A stretch of 46,052 bases of DNA from a virus: positions 1 through 46,052 of IMG/VR virus record IMGVR_UViG_3300045988_022330. The stretch is one strand, 5' to 3'. Positions 4,671 through 40,577 of this stretch are shown here, one piece after another. Below the pieces are notes generated by a model. That model did no database searches. It saw nothing but the letters and a program-made list of their open reading frames with translations, and had not been told where the DNA came from. The first letter of the stretch is position 1, and every line of letters starts with the position of its first letter. Both the position numbers and the translations under genes were made by a program.

Positions 4671-5663
4671 TCAAAATAATTTATTAAATGCGCTTAATAA
4701 AGTTTTTAATGCCGGAATATATGTAACTTCATCCGAAACGTCTATTGTTCCATCATGGAAAGCCAAAAAGCGGGTTTCTAATCCTGCCGTCAATGATGTA
4801 CGGTTAACTGAATTGGTAATATTATTCCATGAAGCATTCAAACCGAATAAACATTTTTTTGCTAAATCAACGTTTGATAAAGTATTATAATCATCTCTAT
4901 CCGCCGTTTCATTTGAAAAAACAATATTATCCAAATTGTTATTACGTGTACGATATTGCATAATATTTTGTCCTGTTGTTTTATAACTTTCTCCAAAATA
5001 TTTAGACGTTCCCGAAAAGAAAGAATTACCCAGAGCACTACCACTAACTATCCTACTAAATAATTCTTGCGCAAATAAACCATCAGCCGTAAAACCCAAA
5101 TAGTTATTTGTTTCAAATCCGCTTGCTTGTGTAATTCTAAATAACGAACCACTATTGACACATTGACCGTACCAATTAATCCCATAATTACCATTATTTG
5201 CGTTTGTATTCTTATCCGTTTTTGTAAATAAATCATAAACGGATAAATTTAATACCAAACATAAATCCGTCCTATACGGTTTTGCCGATAATACATTGTT
5301 GTTTCCATCAACTGAAAAATATCTATAATATTCTTCGTTAAAATTTAAGCCTACACCAGTTGCGCCAATAACCAACGGTTTGTTTTTTGAAAATCTATCT
5401 ACCATAGGAATTGCAGCCGCCTTAAACGTTTCCGAATTTCCTATAAATGGCAACACGTATAATAATTTGTCTAACCAACCGTATTTTTTACCCGTTTCAA
5501 AAAAAGCGGTTACGGCTGTTAATTTATTCTCTGTAAATGTATAATTACATTCACTCATTGCATTTAGATATAATCCTAAATCTCTGTTTTCTACTATACC
5601 GTAGTCCGTTAATATCGGAAAATCTCCGGTAACAATTCCTTTTAAAGTTGTTAATGTTGTCAT
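4671..5663 (-). CDS. Hypothetical tail-fibre-associated protein (330 aa)
   Basis: Long ORF directly downstream of the fibre gene. Asn/Ser/Thr rich. The DNA is visibly AT-rich compared with the rest of the genome. Confidence 0.6.
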   Translation of the reverse strand: MTTLTTLKGIVTGDFPILTDYGIVENRDLGLYLNAMSECNYTFTENKLTAVTAFFETGKKYGWLDKLLYVLPFIGNSETFKAAAIPMVDRFSKNKPLVIGATGVGLNFNEEYYRYFSVDGNNNVLSAKPYRTDLCLVLNLSVYDLFTKTDKNTNANNGNYGINWYGQCVNSGSLFRITQASGFETNNYLGFTADGLFAQELFSRIVSGSALGNSFFSGTSKYFGESYKTTGQNIMQYRTRNNNLDNIVFSNETADRDDYNTLSNVDLAKKCLFGLNASWNNITNSVNRTSLTAGLETRFLAFHDGTIDVSDEVTYIPALKTLLSAFNKLF

Positions 5664-5675
5664 TTCTATAAATAT

Positions 5676-8633
5676 TTAGTCATTAAAATAGTCTTGTGAA
5701 TCATCTATACCCACAATATAATGCGGATAATTTGGTTTATAGGTAATTAAATTTTTATCAACCCCCCATGAACCACCCTTTAAGAAAATGCCAACATTAA
5801 CCAAATTACCCATTTTTTCAAATGCTTCTGTACTCGTAACGTTAAACATTCCTTTCTCCTTTGCGTATTGCAATATTTCATATAACATATATAAGCGTGT
5901 ATTGGGGCACGGCGTCCAATCACTCCAATTGTTAATACCTTTTTCCGTTGGTGGTTCTAAATAGTTATCCGGGTATTCGGTCGGATTGCGTGCCGGGTAA
6001 ACCCATTCATCGGGATATGTACCACCCTCGGACACTAACGAACCCGGCAATTTATTTAACCAACATGGACGATAAGCGTGCAATGCAAAAATTACCCAAC
6101 CTTTTTTACTTACTGCCTCATCAACTACTTTTTTCCATGATGCAAGCAATTCGGGTTTATAACTATTATCCGGGTCTTGCTCTCCTTTATAATTCGGTTG
6201 TTGTTCCATTGGCAAACGTACAACCGTAGTTGTTAATGGTGGTATATTTACTTGTGAAATATCTAAATTCCCAAACCCCCACGGGATATATTTATTTATC
6301 AATTTAACATTTGCATGGCTTGTTGTACCGCCCGGCGTTACCCAACATTTTGTTTTAAATCCTAATTGCGTGGCTATTTCTAACCATTTCCCCCATTGAT
6401 ACCAAATTGGGAACGTTGGATTATACATTATAATGCTATCCGTTTCGTAATTTTTGATATATGGTTTAATATATTCGGTGGGTACTTCAACCCATTCTTT
6501 ATTAGCATTAACCATATAGTTTTTGTTTTCAGAGGAAACGTAAACGCTTGTTGTGTTATTACTTGTTTCACCTGCATAGGTTGAATTTTCAAGAATTGTT
6601 ATTGCTAAATCACTATCTAAACTTTCAACTAAATAATTAACATATTCATAACGTGCCGTCATTGAATGCGCCATAATTTCCCAACCTCTTTCATCTTGTA
6701 ATTTCTTTGCAACTTCTCCATTTGCATTTAATTGCGGAACATTATTTGTTAAACCCGTGCGTTGACCCTCGGCGGCTAAATTCCCTCTTAATCCCAAACT
6801 TTGCAATAATGGATATAATGTTGTCAGATACCCCCCGCCATTCATCCACGAATTCGGCGACGACGTGGGTATATTCATGTCAATTGTATCATCATCATGC
6901 ACACAAAATATTGGTTCTCTATTAACTAAAGGATTACCCGGCATTACAAATTTACCTTTTTCAACTAATACGGCATTCTCAACTTGTGGTTGATAATATT
7001 TATTTTTATCAATTGCCGCCGCATTAGCCTTTGTTGTTAATTCAATCCCCCGTAAACGGATATTCAACGATTTTGAATTAAAATTAGGTATTTCAACACC
7101 GTTTTCAGTTATCAACATTATAATATTACCGTTTTCATCTTTTATTGCTTTTAATATTCCCGCAATATCTCTTATTTCCGAAACTTCATTTGAAAAACCG
7201 CCTTTATAAAATTCAACCGACCCGTCATTTTTTATATAACCTATAATTTTTTTTTCTTCATCTTTAATAATATGCAAGTAGGGCGGTATATCGTCAACCT
7301 CTTTATATACATCATCTAATCTATCTGATAATGTTTTTATTCTATTATTTGTTTCGGCTACATCCGTTGTTAAATCAAATATATCCCACGGCAACACATA
7401 TCCCAACGTTGGCGACCCAGTACAACGAATATAAACCGTATTGGCGGGAATATCTGCGGCGGGAATATTTACGGTTACAATTGCGTTTCCTGCCCATTCC
7501 GGGGTAAATGCAGAAATATATTTGTAATCCTTATCATAAAATGCACATAAAGCAACTAAAGGGGCGTTTTCGTTTATTTGTCCTCTAATTTGCAAATCAT
7601 CTTTCCCGGTTATGCGCAAAAAAGGTGTACAACGCCATCCCGTTGAAATTGTATTTACATTTCCATCTGTATTGCTAATATATCCAATTTCTCTAAACAA
7701 AGAACGTACCCCGTTTAATGGTACGCCAATTTCCGTGGCTACAAAATCATTGTCCGGGTCTGTGCGACGGAATACCGTTAAACGGTTTGTTACTTCAAAA
7801 TTTCCAAATCCTACATAAACGCCCGGTTCAGTCGCCAAATAGAATACATTCGCTTTGCCGGATACCGGAACCGTTGACGGAATAGCCCAACCACGATATA
7901 CGTAACTCCCATTTAGATACGTATTTATTTGAGAAATCACCGCATTAATATCTGCCTTTGTACTTAAATTAACCAATACGTTATATAAATCAAATGGTAT
8001 AACGTAATTATCGGTTACGGTTCTTAATCCCGAACAACGGATATAAACTGTATTTTCCGGGATTTGATTAGCGGGAATCGTATCGGTTCGGGTTCCATCT
8101 GCTGCCCCTCCGGGTTGCCATACTGATATAAATTTATAATCACTATCATAGAAAGCACAAAACGCCATCAAATTAGTAACGCCCTCATAGGCTTTAATTT
8201 GCAAATCTTTTGTTCTGTCAATTGGCAAAAATGGCGTATTCGTAAAATTTGACGACGGCGTATTGATATTGCCGTTGTCTTTACGAACATATCCAACCCC
8301 TAAAAACAAATTCGGCACACCATTTAAAGCGATACCGATATTTTGCGACTTCCAAACGCCCGTTTCGTTCGTAAATACAACCATTTCATTAACAATTGTT
8401 GTTCCGTCGAAATTGTTATAAACGCCACGGGTTCCGGCAATGTAAAAAACGTTTTGGTCGGGCGAACCCGGCACGGTGTCCGGCGTTGCAACCCCGGCAA
8501 ACGTTGAATCATTACCCACATTGCTAACAATCGTTGTTAGCGTGTTTTGCAGCAAATCGCCCGTTATCTCATTGTTCCCGTTCTGTTTGATAACGGCGGC
8601 AATTGCGGCTTTTAATTGTTCATAATTTCCCAT
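5676..8633 (-). CDS. Tail fibre / receptor-binding protein (985 aa): tandem duplicated N-terminal domain, possible carbohydrate-esterase-like C-terminal domain
   Basis: Large ORF in the tail-tip cassette. Residues ~45-215 and ~247-420 are clear paralogous repeats (NVFY.A...GVY..F / LNGV..LF...GY......GN.NT / LQI.. / CAFYD.DYK.IS / IPA..IP.NTVYIRC.G). The C-terminal part has a CVHDDD and AHS motif loosely like NodB/CE4 deacetylases. Confidence 0.7.
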   Translation of the reverse strand: MGNYEQLKAAIAAVIKQNGNNEITGDLLQNTLTTIVSNVGNDSTFAGVATPDTVPGSPDQNVFYIAGTRGVYNNFDGTTIVNEMVVFTNETGVWKSQNIGIALNGVPNLFLGVGYVRKDNGNINTPSSNFTNTPFLPIDRTKDLQIKAYEGVTNLMAFCAFYDSDYKFISVWQPGGAADGTRTDTIPANQIPENTVYIRCSGLRTVTDNYVIPFDLYNVLVNLSTKADINAVISQINTYLNGSYVYRGWAIPSTVPVSGKANVFYLATEPGVYVGFGNFEVTNRLTVFRRTDPDNDFVATEIGVPLNGVRSLFREIGYISNTDGNVNTISTGWRCTPFLRITGKDDLQIRGQINENAPLVALCAFYDKDYKYISAFTPEWAGNAIVTVNIPAADIPANTVYIRCTGSPTLGYVLPWDIFDLTTDVAETNNRIKTLSDRLDDVYKEVDDIPPYLHIIKDEEKKIIGYIKNDGSVEFYKGGFSNEVSEIRDIAGILKAIKDENGNIIMLITENGVEIPNFNSKSLNIRLRGIELTTKANAAAIDKNKYYQPQVENAVLVEKGKFVMPGNPLVNREPIFCVHDDDTIDMNIPTSSPNSWMNGGGYLTTLYPLLQSLGLRGNLAAEGQRTGLTNNVPQLNANGEVAKKLQDERGWEIMAHSMTARYEYVNYLVESLDSDLAITILENSTYAGETSNNTTSVYVSSENKNYMVNANKEWVEVPTEYIKPYIKNYETDSIIMYNPTFPIWYQWGKWLEIATQLGFKTKCWVTPGGTTSHANVKLINKYIPWGFGNLDISQVNIPPLTTTVVRLPMEQQPNYKGEQDPDNSYKPELLASWKKVVDEAVSKKGWVIFALHAYRPCWLNKLPGSLVSEGGTYPDEWVYPARNPTEYPDNYLEPPTEKGINNWSDWTPCPNTRLYMLYEILQYAKEKGMFNVTSTEAFEKMGNLVNVGIFLKGGSWGVDKNLITYKPNYPHYIVGIDDSQDYFND

Positions 8634-32284: not shown

Positions 32285-32736
32285 TAACCTAACATTAATT
32301 GTTGATACTCGGCTTTCATTAACTCAATTAACCGCATATTTGCCGGGTAAATTCTCATTCGTTCCCGGTTGCCGTTTTCCCATTCGTTGTGGTGTTCAAA
32401 GCAAAGTATATTTATATTTCTTGCATCATGCGCCGCCTCCGGGAATGCTCCACGGGTTAAAATGTGGGAACAATACACGGCGGAATAATTCCGCAATGGT
32501 TTTAAACATTCCTCGCATCGGTGCGGCTTATTATCCCATACCCAACGAAAAAACCGTTCATTTGCCGCCATGATATTTGCACCACGTCCGAAAACACAAT
32601 GTCCGAACAACTCCCTTTGTATCTCAACCCTCAAACGAATATCCATTGTAAAGTTACGAATATCCAATAATGGTTGATACCCACGGGATACAACATAATT
32701 ATAACTTTCTCGGTCGTCTATGATAATTGTTTCCAT
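32284..32736 (-). CDS. HNH/beta-beta-alpha-Me-type nuclease-like protein (150 aa)
   Basis: HRCEECLKPL...CSHILTRG..PEAAHDARNINILCFEHHNEWE has the Cys pair and the His/Asn/His spacing of HNH nucleases. Confidence 0.5.
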   Translation of the reverse strand: METIIIDDRESYNYVVSRGYQPLLDIRNFTMDIRLRVEIQRELFGHCVFGRGANIMAANERFFRWVWDNKPHRCEECLKPLRNYSAVYCSHILTRGAFPEAAHDARNINILCFEHHNEWENGNRERMRIYPANMRLIELMKAEYQQLMLG

Positions 32737-33227
32737 ACAAAACCATTATAATTGCGGGTTTTCCCCTCTATGTTTTTACAAATACCTTTTCGCAAAAATC
32801 CGCTTTTCTTTGCCTCGGCAAATGATATATACGTTTTTATCAAATTACCGTTCAAATCATATTGCGCCAATCCTTTTGCAGCGTAATGCGGTTTATTACT
32901 CAATATACGCTTTAACTTATCAACCGTTACCGGGTTATTGCTATTTTCTTTTGGTGTAACCCAACGTAAATTGCAAATTCGGTTATCAGTTACATTTCCG
33001 TTTATGTGGTCAACTTGTTGTTTGTTGTCCGGGTTGGGAATGAATGCCGCCGCAACTAATCTATGAACTAAAAAAACGTGCCTTTTGCCGTTCTTGTATA
33101 ATCCAATGGCATTGTATCCATTTATTTTCCACGGCTTCAACATTACATCAGTTTTCACACTAAATACATTTCCCGTATCGTCAATACAATAACCGGGGAA
33201 TCCTCCAATTTCTTTTAAATTTTCCAT
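32718..33227 (-). mobile_element. Free-standing HNH homing endonuclease (NUMOD4-like + HNH_3-like), 169 aa
   Basis: GGFPGYCIDDTGNVFS...LVHRLVAAAFIPNP...VDHINGNVTDNRICNLRWVTPKEN. The C-terminus (ISFAEAKKSGF...I.....NYNGFVWK) looks like a DNA-binding module. ATG at 33227; the track start is a TTG three codons upstream. Confidence 0.8.
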
Positions 33228-33252
33228 ATTTGCCAACTTTATAAGTAAGCCA

Positions 33253-34127: not shown

Positions 34128-34988
34128 TCAAAATTCGTTTTCGTCCAACAATTCCCGTGTCTTACTATTCGACGGAACCGCCGGGCGTTCCGGTTCCGGG
34201 GTTGGTTCCGGGACGGGTTCCCCGGTTCCGATTGGTTCCGTTACCGGGTTGGGGTCGTGGAACTCAATATTGCGCCCGCCTTTGGGCTTTTCCGGCTCAA
34301 ATTGGGCTTTGAGTTGTTCCGCCGGGTATTCCTTTTGCGCTAACTCAATAATCCCCAAATTAACCAATTCCGGGACGCAACGACGCAACGCCCTTATGTC
34401 CTCTAATGCGTCATGCGCCGGGAATGTTTCGCCGGGGAATAACTTACTATATAATTCCTCTAATTTGGGATATTTTCCCGGTCGCCCGTTTGAATACAAT
34501 GCGCCGACAAACTTAATCGTTTTCATCATTGTATCAATGCGTTTGCCCTTATGTAATGCGTCCTCAACGTGTGCGTCGTAATATTCCCGTCCACAATAGC
34601 GCAAAACGTTTGCTTTTAACATTGAACTATCAAAGTAAATGTTGTGCGCACATACAAGCGGGGCGGCGTTGGCATCCGCTAAAAATTCGTCCACAACCTC
34701 GGCAAACGGCACGCCCTCGGCAATTGCCCGTTCGGTTGTTATACCATGAATTGCGGTTGTTTCCGGGGGTATCTCGTAATTATCGGGTTTGATAATATAA
34801 CTTTTTTCCTTATCGCCCAACGACCATGCCAATTGGACGACGTGCGGGAATTGCTCAAAATCCGCATCCCATTTCAAACCCTTTGCCGGAACCCCGGTTG
34901 TTTCGCAATCAAAGAAACAAACATCTTTCAAATCAAATTTTTGCATAACCTTAAATATTAAATCGTTAATTACTATTTTCGCTCTCAT
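34128..34988 (-). CDS. DEDDh 3-prime-5-prime exonuclease (DnaQ/epsilon-like)
   Basis: ExoI FFDCETTG, ExoII CAHNIYFDSSML, ExoIII HDALEDIRAL. The alternative ATG at 34946 (MQKFDLKD...) would remove the 23-nt overlap with the upstream gene. Pro/Glu-rich C-terminal tail. Confidence 0.85.
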   Translation of the reverse strand: MRAKIVINDLIFKVMQKFDLKDVCFFDCETTGVPAKGLKWDADFEQFPHVVQLAWSLGDKEKSYIIKPDNYEIPPETTAIHGITTERAIAEGVPFAEVVDEFLADANAAPLVCAHNIYFDSSMLKANVLRYCGREYYDAHVEDALHKGKRIDTMMKTIKFVGALYSNGRPGKYPKLEELYSKLFPGETFPAHDALEDIRALRRCVPELVNLGIIELAQKEYPAEQLKAQFEPEKPKGGRNIEFHDPNPVTEPIGTGEPVPEPTPEPERPAVPSNSKTRELLDENEF

Positions 34989-35784: not shown

Positions 35785-36933
35785 TTATTGTTTATTGTCC
35801 CCGTCGCTGTTATTTCTCGCTTTTTCATCGGCTATTAATTTTTTCATTGTGTTACTAAATGCCGTCATTCCTAAAGTATGAATAACGCCCCGTTCCATGC
35901 TTGACAATCGGGTTTCCCGCTTATCCATAATCTTTGCGAACGTAACGACAAATTCGCCCGGCTCCAACAATCCGGCGGCGTGCAATTTGTCGATTGGGTG
36001 CGCTTGTAAACGTTCGGTCGGCTTCAACTCTTTACGGGCTTTTTCTCGCTTTTCCCATATATCCCGAATTGCGGCGGCGGCATTGTCGTAAAACAACCGC
36101 ATTTTCAAAACATCGGCAATTGATAAATCAGCCACGGCGGTTGGTTGCTCTTTTTCCGGCTCCGGTTCCGCCGTAACGGGCGCAACCTTACCGTTGTTCA
36201 CTCCATACCCAAATAACGCAAAATCGCCCCTTGTTGGGTCGTCCGGGAATATCTCGGCGAAACGGTCGGTTATCTCAATGGCTGTTTGCAAATCCGGCGT
36301 CCGGCGTTTTACAAGCCCCAACCGCAACGCTTGTTTATGTACGTGTGTATCTAATGGGATAATCAAATTACGGGGGTCGCAAATCGTCCACAATCCAAAG
36401 TCAACCGGGGAACCGTGGCGACACATCCAACGCAAAAACATACATAAGCGTTTGCAACCGCTTTTCGTTTCCATATCCGGCACGCCCTTAACATCGCCGA
36501 AAAGACGTTGCAATTGTTCCAACGGACGCCCGCCCGGTTGCGCTTGCAATGCCTTTTCCATGTTCTCAAACTTACTATATACGTCAAACAAGCGGGCGCA
36601 AAGGTCGTGAAAATCGGCGTATGTAAACGTTCTATAAAAATTCTCTTTACTGCCTTTGTATTGCTTCCATTCCGGGGCGGCTCCCTGCGTATCGGTTCCA
36701 ACAATGTAATGATACGGCGCACCCTTGAAAATTTCCCGGTCGATAAAATCCGCCTTTTGGATTATCTGTTTGCGGGAACCCCACGCAATCCACGCCGTAA
36801 CAAATGCGCTAATCTCAATATTTACCCGGCTATCGTAACGGTGCGGGATTTGCACCGGGTCGGATTGGATAAACTCGGCGGTTTCGTATTGTTCCGCCCA
36901 ACGTTTCAAATTATCGTTCAATGTATATGCCAT
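35785..36933 (-). CDS. TIGR02757/DUF2400-like protein with an HhH DNA-glycosylase-like core and a ~120-aa C-terminal extension (382 aa)
   Basis: The N-terminus (SDPVQIPHRY......EISAFVTAWIAWGSRKQI) matches my recollection of the DUF2400 family. IIPLDTHVHKQALRLGLV......L..A.EIT..F.EIFPDDP...DFALFGYG parallels the VDTHV.R...RLGL block of EndoIII/MutY-type glycosylases. Confidence 0.55.
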   Translation of the reverse strand: MAYTLNDNLKRWAEQYETAEFIQSDPVQIPHRYDSRVNIEISAFVTAWIAWGSRKQIIQKADFIDREIFKGAPYHYIVGTDTQGAAPEWKQYKGSKENFYRTFTYADFHDLCARLFDVYSKFENMEKALQAQPGGRPLEQLQRLFGDVKGVPDMETKSGCKRLCMFLRWMCRHGSPVDFGLWTICDPRNLIIPLDTHVHKQALRLGLVKRRTPDLQTAIEITDRFAEIFPDDPTRGDFALFGYGVNNGKVAPVTAEPEPEKEQPTAVADLSIADVLKMRLFYDNAAAAIRDIWEKREKARKELKPTERLQAHPIDKLHAAGLLEPGEFVVTFAKIMDKRETRLSSMERGVIHTLGMTAFSNTMKKLIADEKARNNSDGDNKQ

Positions 36934-36958
36934 TGTTTTAGATTTTAAGGGGACGGAA

Positions 36959-36979
36959 AGCCCGCCCCCGGTTATTATT
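36959..36979 (-). repeat. GC-rich intergenic stem-loop
   Basis: ggggacgg-gaaagc-ccgccccc (one mismatch), spanning the ATPase stop and preceding the ATG at 36933. Confidence 0.55.
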
Positions 36980-38420
36980 CGTTTTCTGTGTATTCCTCAA
37001 CAACTAAATCGGTTTGTCCTCGCTTCACTTCCTCAATGAACCCTTGAAAACCGTTTTGTTTAGCAATGTCAATGATTGCTTGCAAACGCTTTTCGCCCAA
37101 ACTTTCGCCCCTCGCAATGCGGAATACCTTAACCGTCGGATTGCTTGCAATAATCAGTTTGGCGGCGACCTCCATAATTTGACTATCTGAAACTTTCCCG
37201 GCGACGAACGGCACGCCGTTTAACTCTAAACCGTCGTCCGTGAACGAAAGCCCGGCAATCGGTAATTTGGACGTTGCAATAAGTGTTTCCCTTTCCTTTG
37301 CCAATGCGCCTAATTTGTCCTCAAACGTGCGGGCGGTTTTCTCGGCGGCTTCCTTTTGTTTCTTTTTTTCCATGTAATCCACAACCAACGCATTGATACG
37401 GTTGTGTTCCTCGGCTTTTTTGAGTTGTTCCGCCGTGTCTAATTGTTCCGGGTTATTGGCTTCGTATTCCTCTAACCATTTGTCGGCATTCGCTTTACGT
37501 TTCACAAACTCGGATTTGTCATTTACGATAACTTGCAACGTTTCCTTATAATCGTTTTCAATGGCTTTTTTGTTGGCTTTCGCATCTTCTTTGGCTTTTT
37601 CCAACCGGGCGTTTGCCTCGGCAATTATCCGGGCAACTTCTTTTTCCTCGGCGGCTAATTTGTCGTCGATTGCCTTAATATTACTTTTTCGGGTTTCTTC
37701 CGCCTCTTTAATTCGTCCGGGGATTGCCTCCAATTGTTCAATCCTTTGTTGCCGGGCTTGGCGTACCGTTTTCGCTTTCTCAATCAACCGGGCATTTTCG
37801 TTTTGCTCTTCCATCAACGCCGTAATATCCTTTTTCTCGGCATACGTTTTGACGTCGCCGGGTTTCAATTGCTTTTCAGCGTTTGCGCAAATGGTTGTGT
37901 ACGTCTTAACCTCGGCGTTGGCGTCCTTTCGTTTGTCCTTAACGGTCGTAACCTCGGCGTCAATTTCTGCAATTCGGGTGCGCACCTTTTCCGGCAACAA
38001 AGCCTTTACAACCTCAATTTGTTTGCGGCGTCCCTCGGCGGTTTCACTCCAACGGGAAAACTCCACGGCGTCAAAATCTTGGTAGCCGAAAATCTTTTGC
38101 AACATTGAAACGTTATCCGAACGCATCCCGGTTGTTTGTGATTTTATGGATAACGTCCCACGTGGGTTGGCTTTGGTAAACTTTAATTCGACTTCGTAAT
38201 TTTCGCCGTCGTTACCTACTACCATTTTTGCAAATCCTTTGTCCTCTCCATTTTTCAACACGGCGTCCCGGTTCCCGGTCAACATTGCGCCGATTGCTTT
38301 TAATAGGGTTGATTTGCCTAACTCGTTGTCCCCGGTAATGAAATATACATTACCCTCAAAATCTGCGTTGAACTCTTTGATAACTTGAAAATTCAACAAT
38401 TCCAATTTCTTAATATACAT
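36975..38420 (-). CDS. SMC/Rad50/SbcC-like AAA ATPase with a long coiled coil (481 aa)
   Basis: The N-terminus (IKKLELLNFQ......F..NVYFITGDNELGKSTLLKAI) is the Walker-A head typical of the RecF/RecN/SMC family. About 250 aa of Lys/Glu/Ala coiled coil follows, then a C-terminal head segment ending FQGFIEEV. Confidence 0.7.
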   Translation of the reverse strand: MYIKKLELLNFQVIKEFNADFEGNVYFITGDNELGKSTLLKAIGAMLTGNRDAVLKNGEDKGFAKMVVGNDGENYEVELKFTKANPRGTLSIKSQTTGMRSDNVSMLQKIFGYQDFDAVEFSRWSETAEGRRKQIEVVKALLPEKVRTRIAEIDAEVTTVKDKRKDANAEVKTYTTICANAEKQLKPGDVKTYAEKKDITALMEEQNENARLIEKAKTVRQARQQRIEQLEAIPGRIKEAEETRKSNIKAIDDKLAAEEKEVARIIAEANARLEKAKEDAKANKKAIENDYKETLQVIVNDKSEFVKRKANADKWLEEYEANNPEQLDTAEQLKKAEEHNRINALVVDYMEKKKQKEAAEKTARTFEDKLGALAKERETLIATSKLPIAGLSFTDDGLELNGVPFVAGKVSDSQIMEVAAKLIIASNPTVKVFRIARGESLGEKRLQAIIDIAKQNGFQGFIEEVKRGQTDLVVEEYTENE

Positions 38421-38436
38421 CGCTCTAATTGTTTAT

Positions 38437-38454
38437 GCCGGGGGTTCCCCCGGC
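38437..38454 (-). repeat. GC-rich intergenic stem-loop (family member)
   Basis: gccgggg-gttc-ccccggc followed by ataaacaattagagcgATG. Confidence 0.65.
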
Positions 38455-38462
38455 GGTTATTA

Positions 38463-39390: not shown

Positions 39391-39945
39391 TTAAAATAAA
39401 CGGTTGTGCATTTGTTGGGGCAAATTTTCCAAAACCCAACGGGGGTTATTCTGTAAAATGAACCGTCCAAAGTGCATTATTAACGTTGCGTCCGCATTCC
39501 ATAACGCCGGGGTAATCTCCGGGTATAATTTCCCCGCAATATCCCGGAACCGTCGTTTGCGGTCTGCCTTTTCCTCCTTTTTCCCTTTTACCTTTATACG
39601 CAATTTAAGGTCATTTTGCCACTTCATAGCATTAACCAAAACAAATGGTATTTCGGCGACGGTTATAATGGCTTTCAAATGCTCAAAGTTTTGCAACATC
39701 TTTTGAATGCGGTATAATTTACCCATGTTTGCCCCGGTATCGCCAACCGTTACGTCGTCCGGGCGAACACTCAATTTTTCCAAAAAGATAATCGGTGTGC
39801 AAATCTCTTTGTAATAGTTCAGAAAATCCCGTATCTCGTTAATGTCTTTAGGCATCTTAATTGCCGTTGCGTTGTGGTTGGGTCGCCAAACCACGATACC
39901 CCCGGCGGCTCCGGGGTCAATCCCAATAATACAATCTATTTTCAT
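39391..39945 (-). CDS. RuvC-like Holliday junction resolvase (184 aa)
   Basis: The N-terminal IIGIDPGAAGGIVV motif is the first catalytic Asp strand of the RNase H/RuvC fold. Later acidic residues (FLEK, NADATLI) fit the same fold. TAATG overlap with the methyltransferase stop. Confidence 0.6.
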   Translation of the reverse strand: MKIDCIIGIDPGAAGGIVVWRPNHNATAIKMPKDINEIRDFLNYYKEICTPIIFLEKLSVRPDDVTVGDTGANMGKLYRIQKMLQNFEHLKAIITVAEIPFVLVNAMKWQNDLKLRIKVKGKKEEKADRKRRFRDIAGKLYPEITPALWNADATLIMHFGRFILQNNPRWVLENLPQQMHNRLF

Positions 39946-40577
39946 TAGAATAAATATTGTGTAATAGTTTTACTCTTAATTCTTTCAATTGCTTTATTAT
40001 AATAATCTGTATCTAATTCACAACCAATAAATTGCAAATTCAATTTTTCTCTCTTATTGATTATATCTATTGCAATTGCAATACTTCCACTTCCTAAATG
40101 AGTATCTAAAATTTTATAACCTTTTTCGGCATTACGCATTATAAGCCATTCATATAATTCTATTGGTTTCTGTGTTGGATGTATCTTATTTTGTTCTTTC
40201 ATAACACTCAACGACCATATTTTTGCAGGTTTTTGAATTGAAGACCATGCGTATTCACACATTGCCAAAGAAAAATTTTCCGGCTGTTTTTTATCCCATA
40301 TATAAAAACCTTGCGACGGGGGCAAATCAAAATAATTTCCGCCCCATATTATTTGGTTTTTGCTCACTCTAAATAATTCATCAAAATATTGTTTGCTTGG
40401 TATTTCATTATCCCAATCTTTTTTCTTGTGCATTTGTCTAACCGGATTTTTACTAATCCCAATACCATACGGCGGGTCAACAATAGCCAAATCAAAATAT
40501 TTATCCGAATATCTTTTCATTAAATCTAAATTATTCTCATTTGTTATCTCTATGTTATCATTTATTTTCATAATCAA
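39945..40577 (-). CDS. DNA methyltransferase, N6-adenine/N4-cytosine family, beta-class motif order (210 aa)
   Basis: Motif IV DPPYG (LAIVDPPYGIG) precedes the AdoMet motif I (ILDTHLGSGSIAIA). HPTQKP is also present. No cognate nuclease is adjacent. Visibly AT-rich DNA. Confidence 0.85.
   Translation of the reverse strand: MIMKINDNIEITNENNLDLMKRYSDKYFDLAIVDPPYGIGISKNPVRQMHKKKDWDNEIPSKQYFDELFRVSKNQIIWGGNYFDLPPSQGFYIWDKKQPENFSLAMCEYAWSSIQKPAKIWSLSVMKEQNKIHPTQKPIELYEWLIMRNAEKGYKILDTHLGSGSIAIAIDIINKREKLNLQFIGCELDTDYYNKAIERIKSKTITQYLF

Follow-up and report, generated by a model that had tools for sequence, protein, structure and literature searches.

Analysis of a 46,052-nucleotide (nt) viral sequence (IMG/VR record IMGVR_UViG_3300045988_022330, taken at its full length and referred to here as the window) uncovered on its minus strand a gene whose 382-amino-acid (aa) product joins two units of separate evolutionary origin. 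The N-terminal unit is a DUF2400/TIGR02757 domain, which belongs to a catalogued but uncharacterised family encountered mainly in Bacteroidales, and the C-terminal unit is a small all-helical module homologous to a stand-alone phage protein. DUF2400 is a separate and remote branch of the helix-hairpin-helix (HhH)-GPD superfamily, lying outside Pfam family PF00730. The linkage of the gene to a neighbouring SMC-like ATPase gene belongs to the module and not to DUF2400, and the enzyme half is an optional addition, lost in several lineages. The fusion is a new architectural arrangement and not a new kind of system. We favour, at about even confidence, the reading that the fusion protein is an HhH-GPD-type N-glycosidase acting on DNA, which the small module places in the replication/recombination machinery.

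Architecture of the fusion protein

Both open reading frames (ORFs) of the initial annotation, those of the fusion protein and of the ATPase, were real and occupied the positions assigned to them (Table 1). Membership in DUF2400/TIGR02757, proposed there from the N-terminal sequence, was confirmed above the curated thresholds of two databases. Pfam DUF2400 (PF09674) matched residues 25-245 with 206.6 bits (E-value 6.8e-61, gathering threshold 25) over profile positions 1-224 of 225, and NCBIfam TIGR02757 matched residues 21-246 with 217.2 bits (cutoff 139.2) over positions 1-228 of 229. The sequence blocks quoted in that annotation were located at residues 191-208, 229-233 (FPDDP) and 238-244 (FALFGYG), and the protein carried the family-invariant residues E40, W169, R172, D178, G180, W182, D195, D232 and D237. 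Its length of 382 aa and its fused module depart from the single-domain DUF2400 architecture of ~230-270 aa (229-262 aa in cellular members).

Modelling by AlphaFold2 on an alignment of 89 sequences gave a mean predicted local distance difference test score (pLDDT) of 92.8. The model consisted of a helical DUF2400 domain and, at residues ~266-378, a separate domain made up of helices only, with a disordered linker between them whose pLDDT dropped under 50 at residues 255-261; the additional helical domain previously suspected behind a Pro/Glu linker was thus recovered.

Relationship to the HhH-GPD superfamily

Foldseek comparison of the model with the PDB returned Qng1/DUF2419, OGG1, AGOG, MjOgg and EndoIII as best matches (probability 0.9-0.99, E-values 0.02-0.5), and nearly all top matches were members of the HhH-GPD superfamily. 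The best of them was the Qng1 structure 7u07 (E-value 0.02, probability 0.99). Template modelling scores normalised to the matched structure (TMt) reached ~0.52 for EndoIII entries 1orn and 1orp, 0.49 for 1xg7 and 0.47 for 7oue, and many OGG1 entries were found too. Family conservation and a permissive Pfam scan were evaluated on 89 diverse DUF2400 members. HhH-GPD was the sole recurrent secondary match, being found at sub-threshold scores in 23 of the 89 (best E-value 8e-4), and any other family appeared in at most two; the score against PF00730 was 12.8 bits, under the gathering threshold of 26.2. Two DUF2400 profiles compared with PDB sequences gave weak matches mainly to EndoIII (rank 1 for one profile and 2 for the other), always at a single motif that paired iPLDtHv.r.A..lgl with EndoIII IPVDTHVHRIANRLG / IPVDTHVHRIANRLGW. 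In a local hhalign alignment of 2.3% probability, IPLDTHV...FPD was paired with IAVDTHI...VPA of Escherichia coli Nth (residues 135-169, including D138). A plain sequence search of the PDB recovered zero relatives with a solved structure. The structural matches, the Pfam recurrence and the profile matches are three independent weak signals in agreement, and the resemblance to EndoIII, as judged from sequence profiles and the model, exceeds chance. The HhH-glycosylase-like fold with a VDTHV-type Asp segment, which had been proposed from a comparison of motifs, was upheld by these signals.

The residue aligned to D195 is Nth D138, the catalytic Asp of the superfamily; the profile, hhalign and Pfam HhH-GPD alignments, each weak by itself, were consistent in pairing D195 with the Asp of EndoIII VDTHV. 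D195, within IPLDTHV, was invariant among the 89 members, and K161, within S-x-C-K-R, was conserved in at least 90% of them. In the model K161 lies at the N-terminus of a predicted helix (residues 161-171) that follows a G-V-P hairpin, and by position and spacing it is probably the Lys of the HhH motif. This Lys is the nucleophile in bifunctional HhH-GPD members. The suggestion to look for a catalytic Asp and Lys at the HhH-GPD position was borne out for the Asp, and for the Lys it yielded a candidate identified by its position. The HhH Lys and the Asp are the sole residues invariant across Qng1, AGOG, OGG1 and EndoIII (PMC9881137).

DUF2400 and EndoIII/Nth have in common a two-lobed helical fold and the IPLDTHV...LGL segment (IAVDTHI in Nth), after which a helix, a Pro and an LxxxG segment come in the same order; a Lys opening the second HhH helix would be a further shared feature. 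In contrast, the spacing between Lys and Asp is 34 residues in DUF2400 (K161-D195) and 18 in EndoIII, due to a conserved 16-residue insertion (SPVDxGxW) that separates the Asp from the Lys helix. DUF2400 also has a longer HhH hairpin, with ~8 extra residues between G-V-P and K161, and the Cys cluster that binds [4Fe-4S] is missing. The five Cys of the window protein (residues 112, 160, 164, 171 and 185) all precede D195, none of them in a C-terminal cluster; the family consensus holds zero conserved C-terminal Cys, and the domain terminates at FALFGYG. It is because of the insertion, the longer hairpin and the missing Fe-S Cys that DUF2400 is regarded as a separate branch. OGG1 and AGOG resemble it in fold according to Foldseek, but display no significant sequence similarity to it.

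The C-terminal module

A 118-aa ORF alone fills the slot that lies between the ATPase gene and the gene annotated as 'NinB' in Bacteroides phage BKO1-3, and its product is 53% identical to window residues 267-382 (E-value 8e-40). Stand-alone homologues of 110-130 aa were common on phage-sized contigs of 42-48 kb, with a constant gene order: the ATPase (452-481 aa), the module, an overlapping 143-aa gene, a DnaQ-like exonuclease and SSB. This lineage was extremely abundant, one ATPase cluster comprising 1,992 member sequences. Since the free module homologue fills the same slot beside the ATPase, the ATPase linkage belongs to the module and not to DUF2400. Small uncharacterised phage proteins in BFVD shared the module fold (TMt up to 0.91), and searches of Pfam, PHROG and PADLOC gave zero family matches for it.

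Fused DUF2400-module proteins were also found in far more divergent phages, with 36-62% identity in the enzyme domain. The length of the linker differed among homologues (P0121, P0123, P0126 and P0137), and the linker is a boundary of both recombination and length variation. The ATPase and the 143-aa gene flanked divergent fusions at two loci (L194 and L197); at a third, L195, the fused gene had no ATPase directly upstream. Scanning of IMG/VR recovered none of three distant fusions (P0137, P0177 and P0239), and their contigs were found by exact sequence. In these three most divergent fused homologues (loci L193, L194 and L195) the DTHV motif was degenerate, reading SIDKKA, SIDKMI and VEVDRFT with the Asp kept, so changed or lost catalysis is possible in some fused copies.

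Distribution of DUF2400 in cells and phages

Cellular DUF2400 genes were stand-alone genes encoding 229-262 aa, detected in at least 578 species genomes, mostly of gut Bacteroidales, by a scan with a 16-sequence alignment. The family as a whole comprised ~2,500 clusters at 50% identity. Clustering of the neighbours at 74 Bacteroidales loci revealed no family common to more than ~10 loci and no ATPase; the neighbours were unrelated housekeeping genes.

Two further arrangements were encountered in phages. C3_41T2LP and phages of the LoVEphage/BI-TP1/PV4-TP1 group carried DUF2400 as a free gene of 236-246 aa without an ATPase neighbour. In a third phage type of ~43 kb, it was fused to a different and unrelated helical C-terminal extension of ~250 aa (~200-370 aa overall), again without an ATPase (L196, positions 5001-6545, P0146; also P0179, P0187, P0188, P0208 and P0233). 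Neighbours of this second fusion encoded YqaJ exonuclease, DUF4494, DUF4406 and SSB, and the extension displayed no convincing Pfam or PHROG match and no PADLOC identity. In all three phage groups DUF2400 was located in replication/recombination or DNA-modification gene blocks.

As neither cellular DUF2400 genes nor those of other phages had an ATPase neighbour, the adjacency seen in the window was inherited from the module. The conserved unit is the series ATPase, module, overlapping 143-aa gene and DnaQ-like exonuclease, with or without DUF2400. A conserved pairing of DUF2400 with the ATPase, as initially suggested, was consequently not retained: the ATPase block occurs without DUF2400, and DUF2400 without the ATPase. 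The homologue survey proposed alongside it gave a divided answer, with the fusion and its ATPase neighbour recurring in divergent phages and DUF2400 being free, without an ATPase, in other phage groups.

Loss of the enzyme half and mosaicism

In several independent metagenomic variants, the first 60-120 residues of DUF2400 ran in frame into the final ~70 residues of the module. These remnants (P0319, P0306, P0308 and P0340) occupied the same slot and were devoid of the catalytic half, K161 and D195 included. In a frequent 333-aa variant, 49 residues were missing from the N-terminal half of the module, so that only the module core (residues ~312-382) was always retained. The presence of the enzyme half is therefore optional, in-frame deletions having removed it in several lineages. 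Such repeated gain and loss suggests a conditional benefit, for example when damage arises in the gut or in particular hosts.

Intact copies are under purifying selection. Ratios of non-synonymous to synonymous divergence (dN/dS), pooled by region for the window gene against 80 IMG/VR relatives, were 0.13 for the DUF2400 domain, 0.34 for the linker and 0.16-0.26 for the module. All 14 checked family-conserved residues were kept in 81 phage copies, with R172H as the single exception. Synonymous divergence was 0.15 in the enzyme domain versus 0.38-0.55 in the module, and the fusion gene is a mosaic.

PDS1-like genomes that are otherwise 98-100% identical in their proteins diverged in two segments, the module (35788-36135) and the ATPase coiled coil (37272-38000), with median identities of 83% and 84% and minima of 58% and 65%, respectively. 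Their high synonymous divergence points to old alleles shuffled by recombination. The two segments varied independently of one another.

Predicted function of the fusion protein

According to the favoured reading, the DUF2400 domain, a predicted N-glycosidase, would flip out and excise a damaged or modified DNA base, possibly with apurinic/apyrimidinic (AP)-lyase chemistry via K161. The fused module would deliver the enzyme to the normal target of the free module in the phage replication/recombination machinery, and base excision would be coupled to phage DNA synthesis or repair. DNA is favoured over free nucleotides as substrate because DUF2400 recurs in DNA-metabolism blocks of three phage groups and is fused to two different helical modules resident in such blocks.

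Several observations weigh against this assignment. The similarity to solved glycosylases is remote, whether measured by Foldseek E-values, by the sub-threshold HhH-GPD score or by the hhalign probability. Qng1, the best structural match, works on a free nucleotide rather than on DNA, and the insertion before K161 in the HhH hairpin is found in Qng1 as well. The equivalence of K161 to the HhH Lys is putative, drawn from position and spacing. Both T and H of DTHV were lost in P0137, P0177 and P0239, the first of which also lost the Lys. Cellular DUF2400 genes were without DNA-repair neighbours, and covariation between module and ATPase was absent across 78 genomes, in a shallow test that still leaves room for contact.

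The main rival, considered rather unlikely, is that DUF2400 is a Qng1-like N-glycosidase of free nucleosides or nucleotides, serving salvage or pool sanitising and reshaping the phage nucleotide pool. Apart from its rank in the structural search, Qng1 shares the Lys/Asp pair, and its HhH motif is interrupted just ahead of the Lys by an insertion (PMC9881137), where DUF2400 has its ~8 extra residues. The spacing of the pair is similar (32 for Qng1 K199-D231, against 34), and the stand-alone, housekeeping-type cellular copies would suit such an activity. However, the two proteins are only ~13% identical and no sequence-profile link was found between them, as Q_salvage was never recurrent in the Pfam scan and HhH-GPD alone was. 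Neither the beta-hairpin insertions that close the cleft of Qng1 nor its C-terminal tail reaching the active site were evident in the DUF2400 model, which contained a single short strand (residues 98-100) and no hairpin before K161. Qng1 is not known from phage replication modules, in contrast to the repeated presence of DUF2400 in phage replication/recombination blocks, fused to proteins of those blocks; moreover, no nucleotide-metabolism partner was adjacent.

The glycosylase reading is already present in GenBank records of sister phages. In those of PDS1 and C1_85S2P the gene pair is named 'condensin/DNA repair protein' and 'N-glycosylase/DNA lysase', the latter being PDS1 gp24. The usual product name of OGG and AGOG proteins is 'N-glycosylase/DNA lyase', which the PDS1 label resembles. 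Genes gp23 and gp24 are not discussed in the PDS1 paper, and literature on DUF2400, TIGR02757, PF09674 or IPR014127 yielded nothing beyond one incidental mention. As an optional accessory gene already labelled glycosylase, the fusion is a reasonable biochemical target and no surprise. Added here are the identification of the catalytic Asp and a candidate Lys, the recognition of the C-terminal domain as an independent phage protein that carries the ATPase linkage, the natural deletion series that marks the enzyme half as accessory, and the mosaic pattern. With the HhH-GPD Asp retained, and probably the Lys, there is a concrete biochemical hypothesis that can be tested for a gene belonging to the core of dominant gut bacteria and of very abundant gut phages. 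Phage fusions offer a natural handle in this respect, since the partner of the module would reveal the place of the enzyme in phage DNA metabolism.

The SMC-like ATPase

The gene upstream of the fusion gene, separated from it by a 41-nt gap, encodes an SMC-like ATPase with a Walker A motif and an antiparallel coiled coil. Pfam matches and the modelled coiled coil agree with the initial description of this protein, as does the lack of a partner: no calcineurin-type phosphoesterase of the Mre11/SbcD kind was present among the scanned larger ORFs of the replication block. Its N-terminus gave weak matches to RecF and Rad50. At the expected Walker-B position, VFRIARGESLG was conserved without change, also in a homologue of 49% identity. 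The protein contains a single Cys (C178) and is devoid of a CxxC zinc hook, and no His was seen in the expected H-loop region. The atypical Walker B, together with the missing H-loop His and hook, suggests from sequence an atypical or regulatory ATPase cycle.

The model of the ATPase had an overall pLDDT of 64; its coiled coil was confident and its heads were unreliable, because the modelling alignment was shallow. Foldseek with this low-confidence model placed the Smc head and coiled coil first (E-value 1e-4), followed by JetC, MukB, LmuA and Rad50, which as a model-based comparison supports only the general SMC-like class. PADLOC returned generic matches to AriA, PtuA, LmuB and GajA, mostly within the N-terminal Walker-A region, and a search for ATPase homologues returned only copies at least 98% identical.

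Coiled-coil ATPase genes adjoin the gene of a catalytic domain, linker and small helical domain both here and in Mre11-Rad50/SbcCD, a likeness of architecture only. It is nevertheless conceivable, though improbable, that the fusion protein works together with the ATPase as a single Rad50-Mre11-like machine, in which the module docks on the ATPase and a tethered glycosylase/lyase replaces the nuclease. Mre11 has Rad50-binding helices, and by analogy the enzyme-linker-helical domain layout would fit. The order of ATPase and module, free or fused, was kept down to 49% ATPase identity, the intergenic gap is short (41 nt), and the ATPase has no other partner nearby. Unlike Mre11-Rad50/SbcCD, however, the window pair is devoid of the phosphoesterase, the CxxC hook and the Walker-B Asp, and there is no evidence of contact between module and ATPase. 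A coupled-divergence (Mantel) test across the 78 genomes, used as a shallow proxy for contact, gave correlations of 0.10 between module and ATPase coiled coil and about 0 between module and ATPase heads, versus 0.39 between the module and the DUF2400 domain to which it is fused. The L195 fusion lacks an ATPase directly upstream, the module is just as tightly linked to the downstream 143-aa gene, which it overlaps by 44 nt, and the heads with which contact would be modelled are of low confidence. It is a less probable variant still that DUF2400 is a glycosylase with a novel substrate, such as a modified or damaged base specific to Bacteroidales or phages, recruited by the module to the ATPase as a Rad50/Mre11-like base-excision machine. 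If this were true, base excision would replace nucleolytic processing, either in recombination-dependent replication or against a DNA-based host defence.

Short intergenic gaps on either side of the ATPase gene displayed GC-rich 8-bp hairpins (36949-36969 and 38436-38455), the downstream one with -16.8 kcal/mol and a z-score of -2.1. The hairpin after the ATPase gene was rejected as a conventional terminator, being without a U-tract and not called by a terminator scan. Both could be Bacteroidetes-type terminators or elements of RNA processing or stability.

Neighbouring genes and other DNA-directed functions

Coordinates of the fusion gene, the ATPase gene and the two conserved genes downstream are given in Table 1.

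Table 1. Features of the fusion gene and its surroundings in the window (residue numbers refer to the encoded protein)
Feature	Position	Strand	Basis or remarks
Fusion gene	35785..36933	-	382 aa, stop codon included; DUF2400 domain, linker and small phage module; ORF, family matches, AlphaFold2
DUF2400/TIGR02757 domain, residues 1-247	36193..36933	-	Pfam, NCBIfam, Foldseek
Putative catalytic Asp195 codon	36349-36351	-	EndoIII Asp-motif alignment; family conservation
Putative HhH Lys161 codon	36451-36453	-	Position and family conservation
Motif IIPLDTHVHKQALRLGLV, residues 191-208	36310-36363	-	Sequence
Flexible Pro/Glu-rich linker, residues 248-266	36136..36192	-	Model pLDDT; length variation; shift of synonymous divergence (dS) across linker
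All-helical module, residues 267-382	35788..36135	-	Homologous to stand-alone 110-130-aa phage protein
Conserved module core, residues ~312-382	35788-36000	-	Kept in all deletion variants
SMC-like ABC-type ATPase	36975..38420	-	481 aa; Pfam AAA_23, AAA_15, AAA_29, SMC_N; phrog_1499 (function unknown)
Walker A GDNELGKST	38307-38333	-	Sequence; canonical
Antiparallel coiled coil, residues ~140-383	37272-38000	-	Modelled at pLDDT 80-91
Signature-like VSDSQ	37179-37193	-	Sequence; C-terminal head
Atypical Walker-B region VKVFRIARGESLG	37095-37133	-	Glu present, Asp absent
143-aa gene, 'NinB' in related phage records	35397..35828	-	phrog_23774 (function unknown); always after module; PDS1 and BKO1-3 annotations
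DnaQ-like DEDD 3'-5' exonuclease	34128..34988	-	Pfam RNase_T, phrog_192; next conserved block member by synteny

The 143-aa gene overlaps the fusion gene at 35785-35828. Its product remained unmatched by Pfam NinB at E-values up to 1, the label being derived from GenBank annotations of relatives. A 506-aa variant from a single metagenomic contig (P0005) read through into this gene as a triple fusion, which may be genuine or may result from a frameshift introduced in sequencing.

An N6/N4 DNA methyltransferase gene (39945-40577) and an HNH_3/NUMOD homing-type endonuclease gene (32718-33236) were without counterparts in the syntenic regions of PDS1, AS73P1 and BKO1-3; both are variable cassettes that entered the replication block by insertion. 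A functional link of the fusion gene with the radical SAM/ASCH pair of the window, as initially supposed, had no comparative support, since the window's proteins share no homology with the radical SAM and ASCH proteins encoded close to DUF2400 in BI-TP1.

Phage aGPT-Pplases, predicted enzymes of HhH-glycosylase fold (PMC8989533), had been cited as precedent for a role in base exchange or hypermodification. The precedent itself was borne out, yet nothing indicated such a role for DUF2400: none of the 89 members matched the aGPT-Pplase families, and no kinase or hydroxymethylase for 5-hydroxymethyluracil (5-hmU) DNA was present among the window proteins scanned, a set that did not extend to every small ORF. 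DUF2400 resembles aGPT-Pplases in being phage-encoded with a predicted glycosylase-like HhH fold (PMC8989533), and differs from them in being mainly a cellular family. We consider it very doubtful that DUF2400 is a DNA binder that flips bases, an enzyme that modifies or transfers bases like the aGPT-Pplases, or a factor that counters host defence by removing or masking a host-specific DNA mark. In favour of such roles, the chemistry that aGPT-Pplases perform on phage DNA is not that of a glycosylase (PMC8989533), K161 or the T and H of DTHV are missing from some fused homologues in which the Asp persists, and the gene, like many counter-defence genes, is accessory and mosaic. Against them, besides the missing family matches and 5-hmU partners, DUF2400 had no PADLOC match, the presence of cellular orthologues in at least 578 species speaks for a housekeeping enzyme, and the window copy retains every family-invariant residue.

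The phage genome and its relatives

The region at 33-41 kb of the window displayed 93-96% DNA identity to three gut isolates, namely Bacteroides phage C1_85S2P and the Parabacteroides phages PDS1 and PD491P1. All genes lie on the minus strand. Alistipes and Bacteroides are the hosts of more distant relatives. The window seems to represent the entire genome of a PDS1-like phage. Contig CAAFAI010000186.1 (L004 / L112; 46,054 bp), assigned to a Bacteroidaceae metagenome-assembled genome bin, matched it at 98%. Comparable phage contigs were filed under unrelated taxa, in records of Clostridiales, Propionibacterium, Vibrio and Acetobacter, which points to artefacts of binning or contamination in public genomes.

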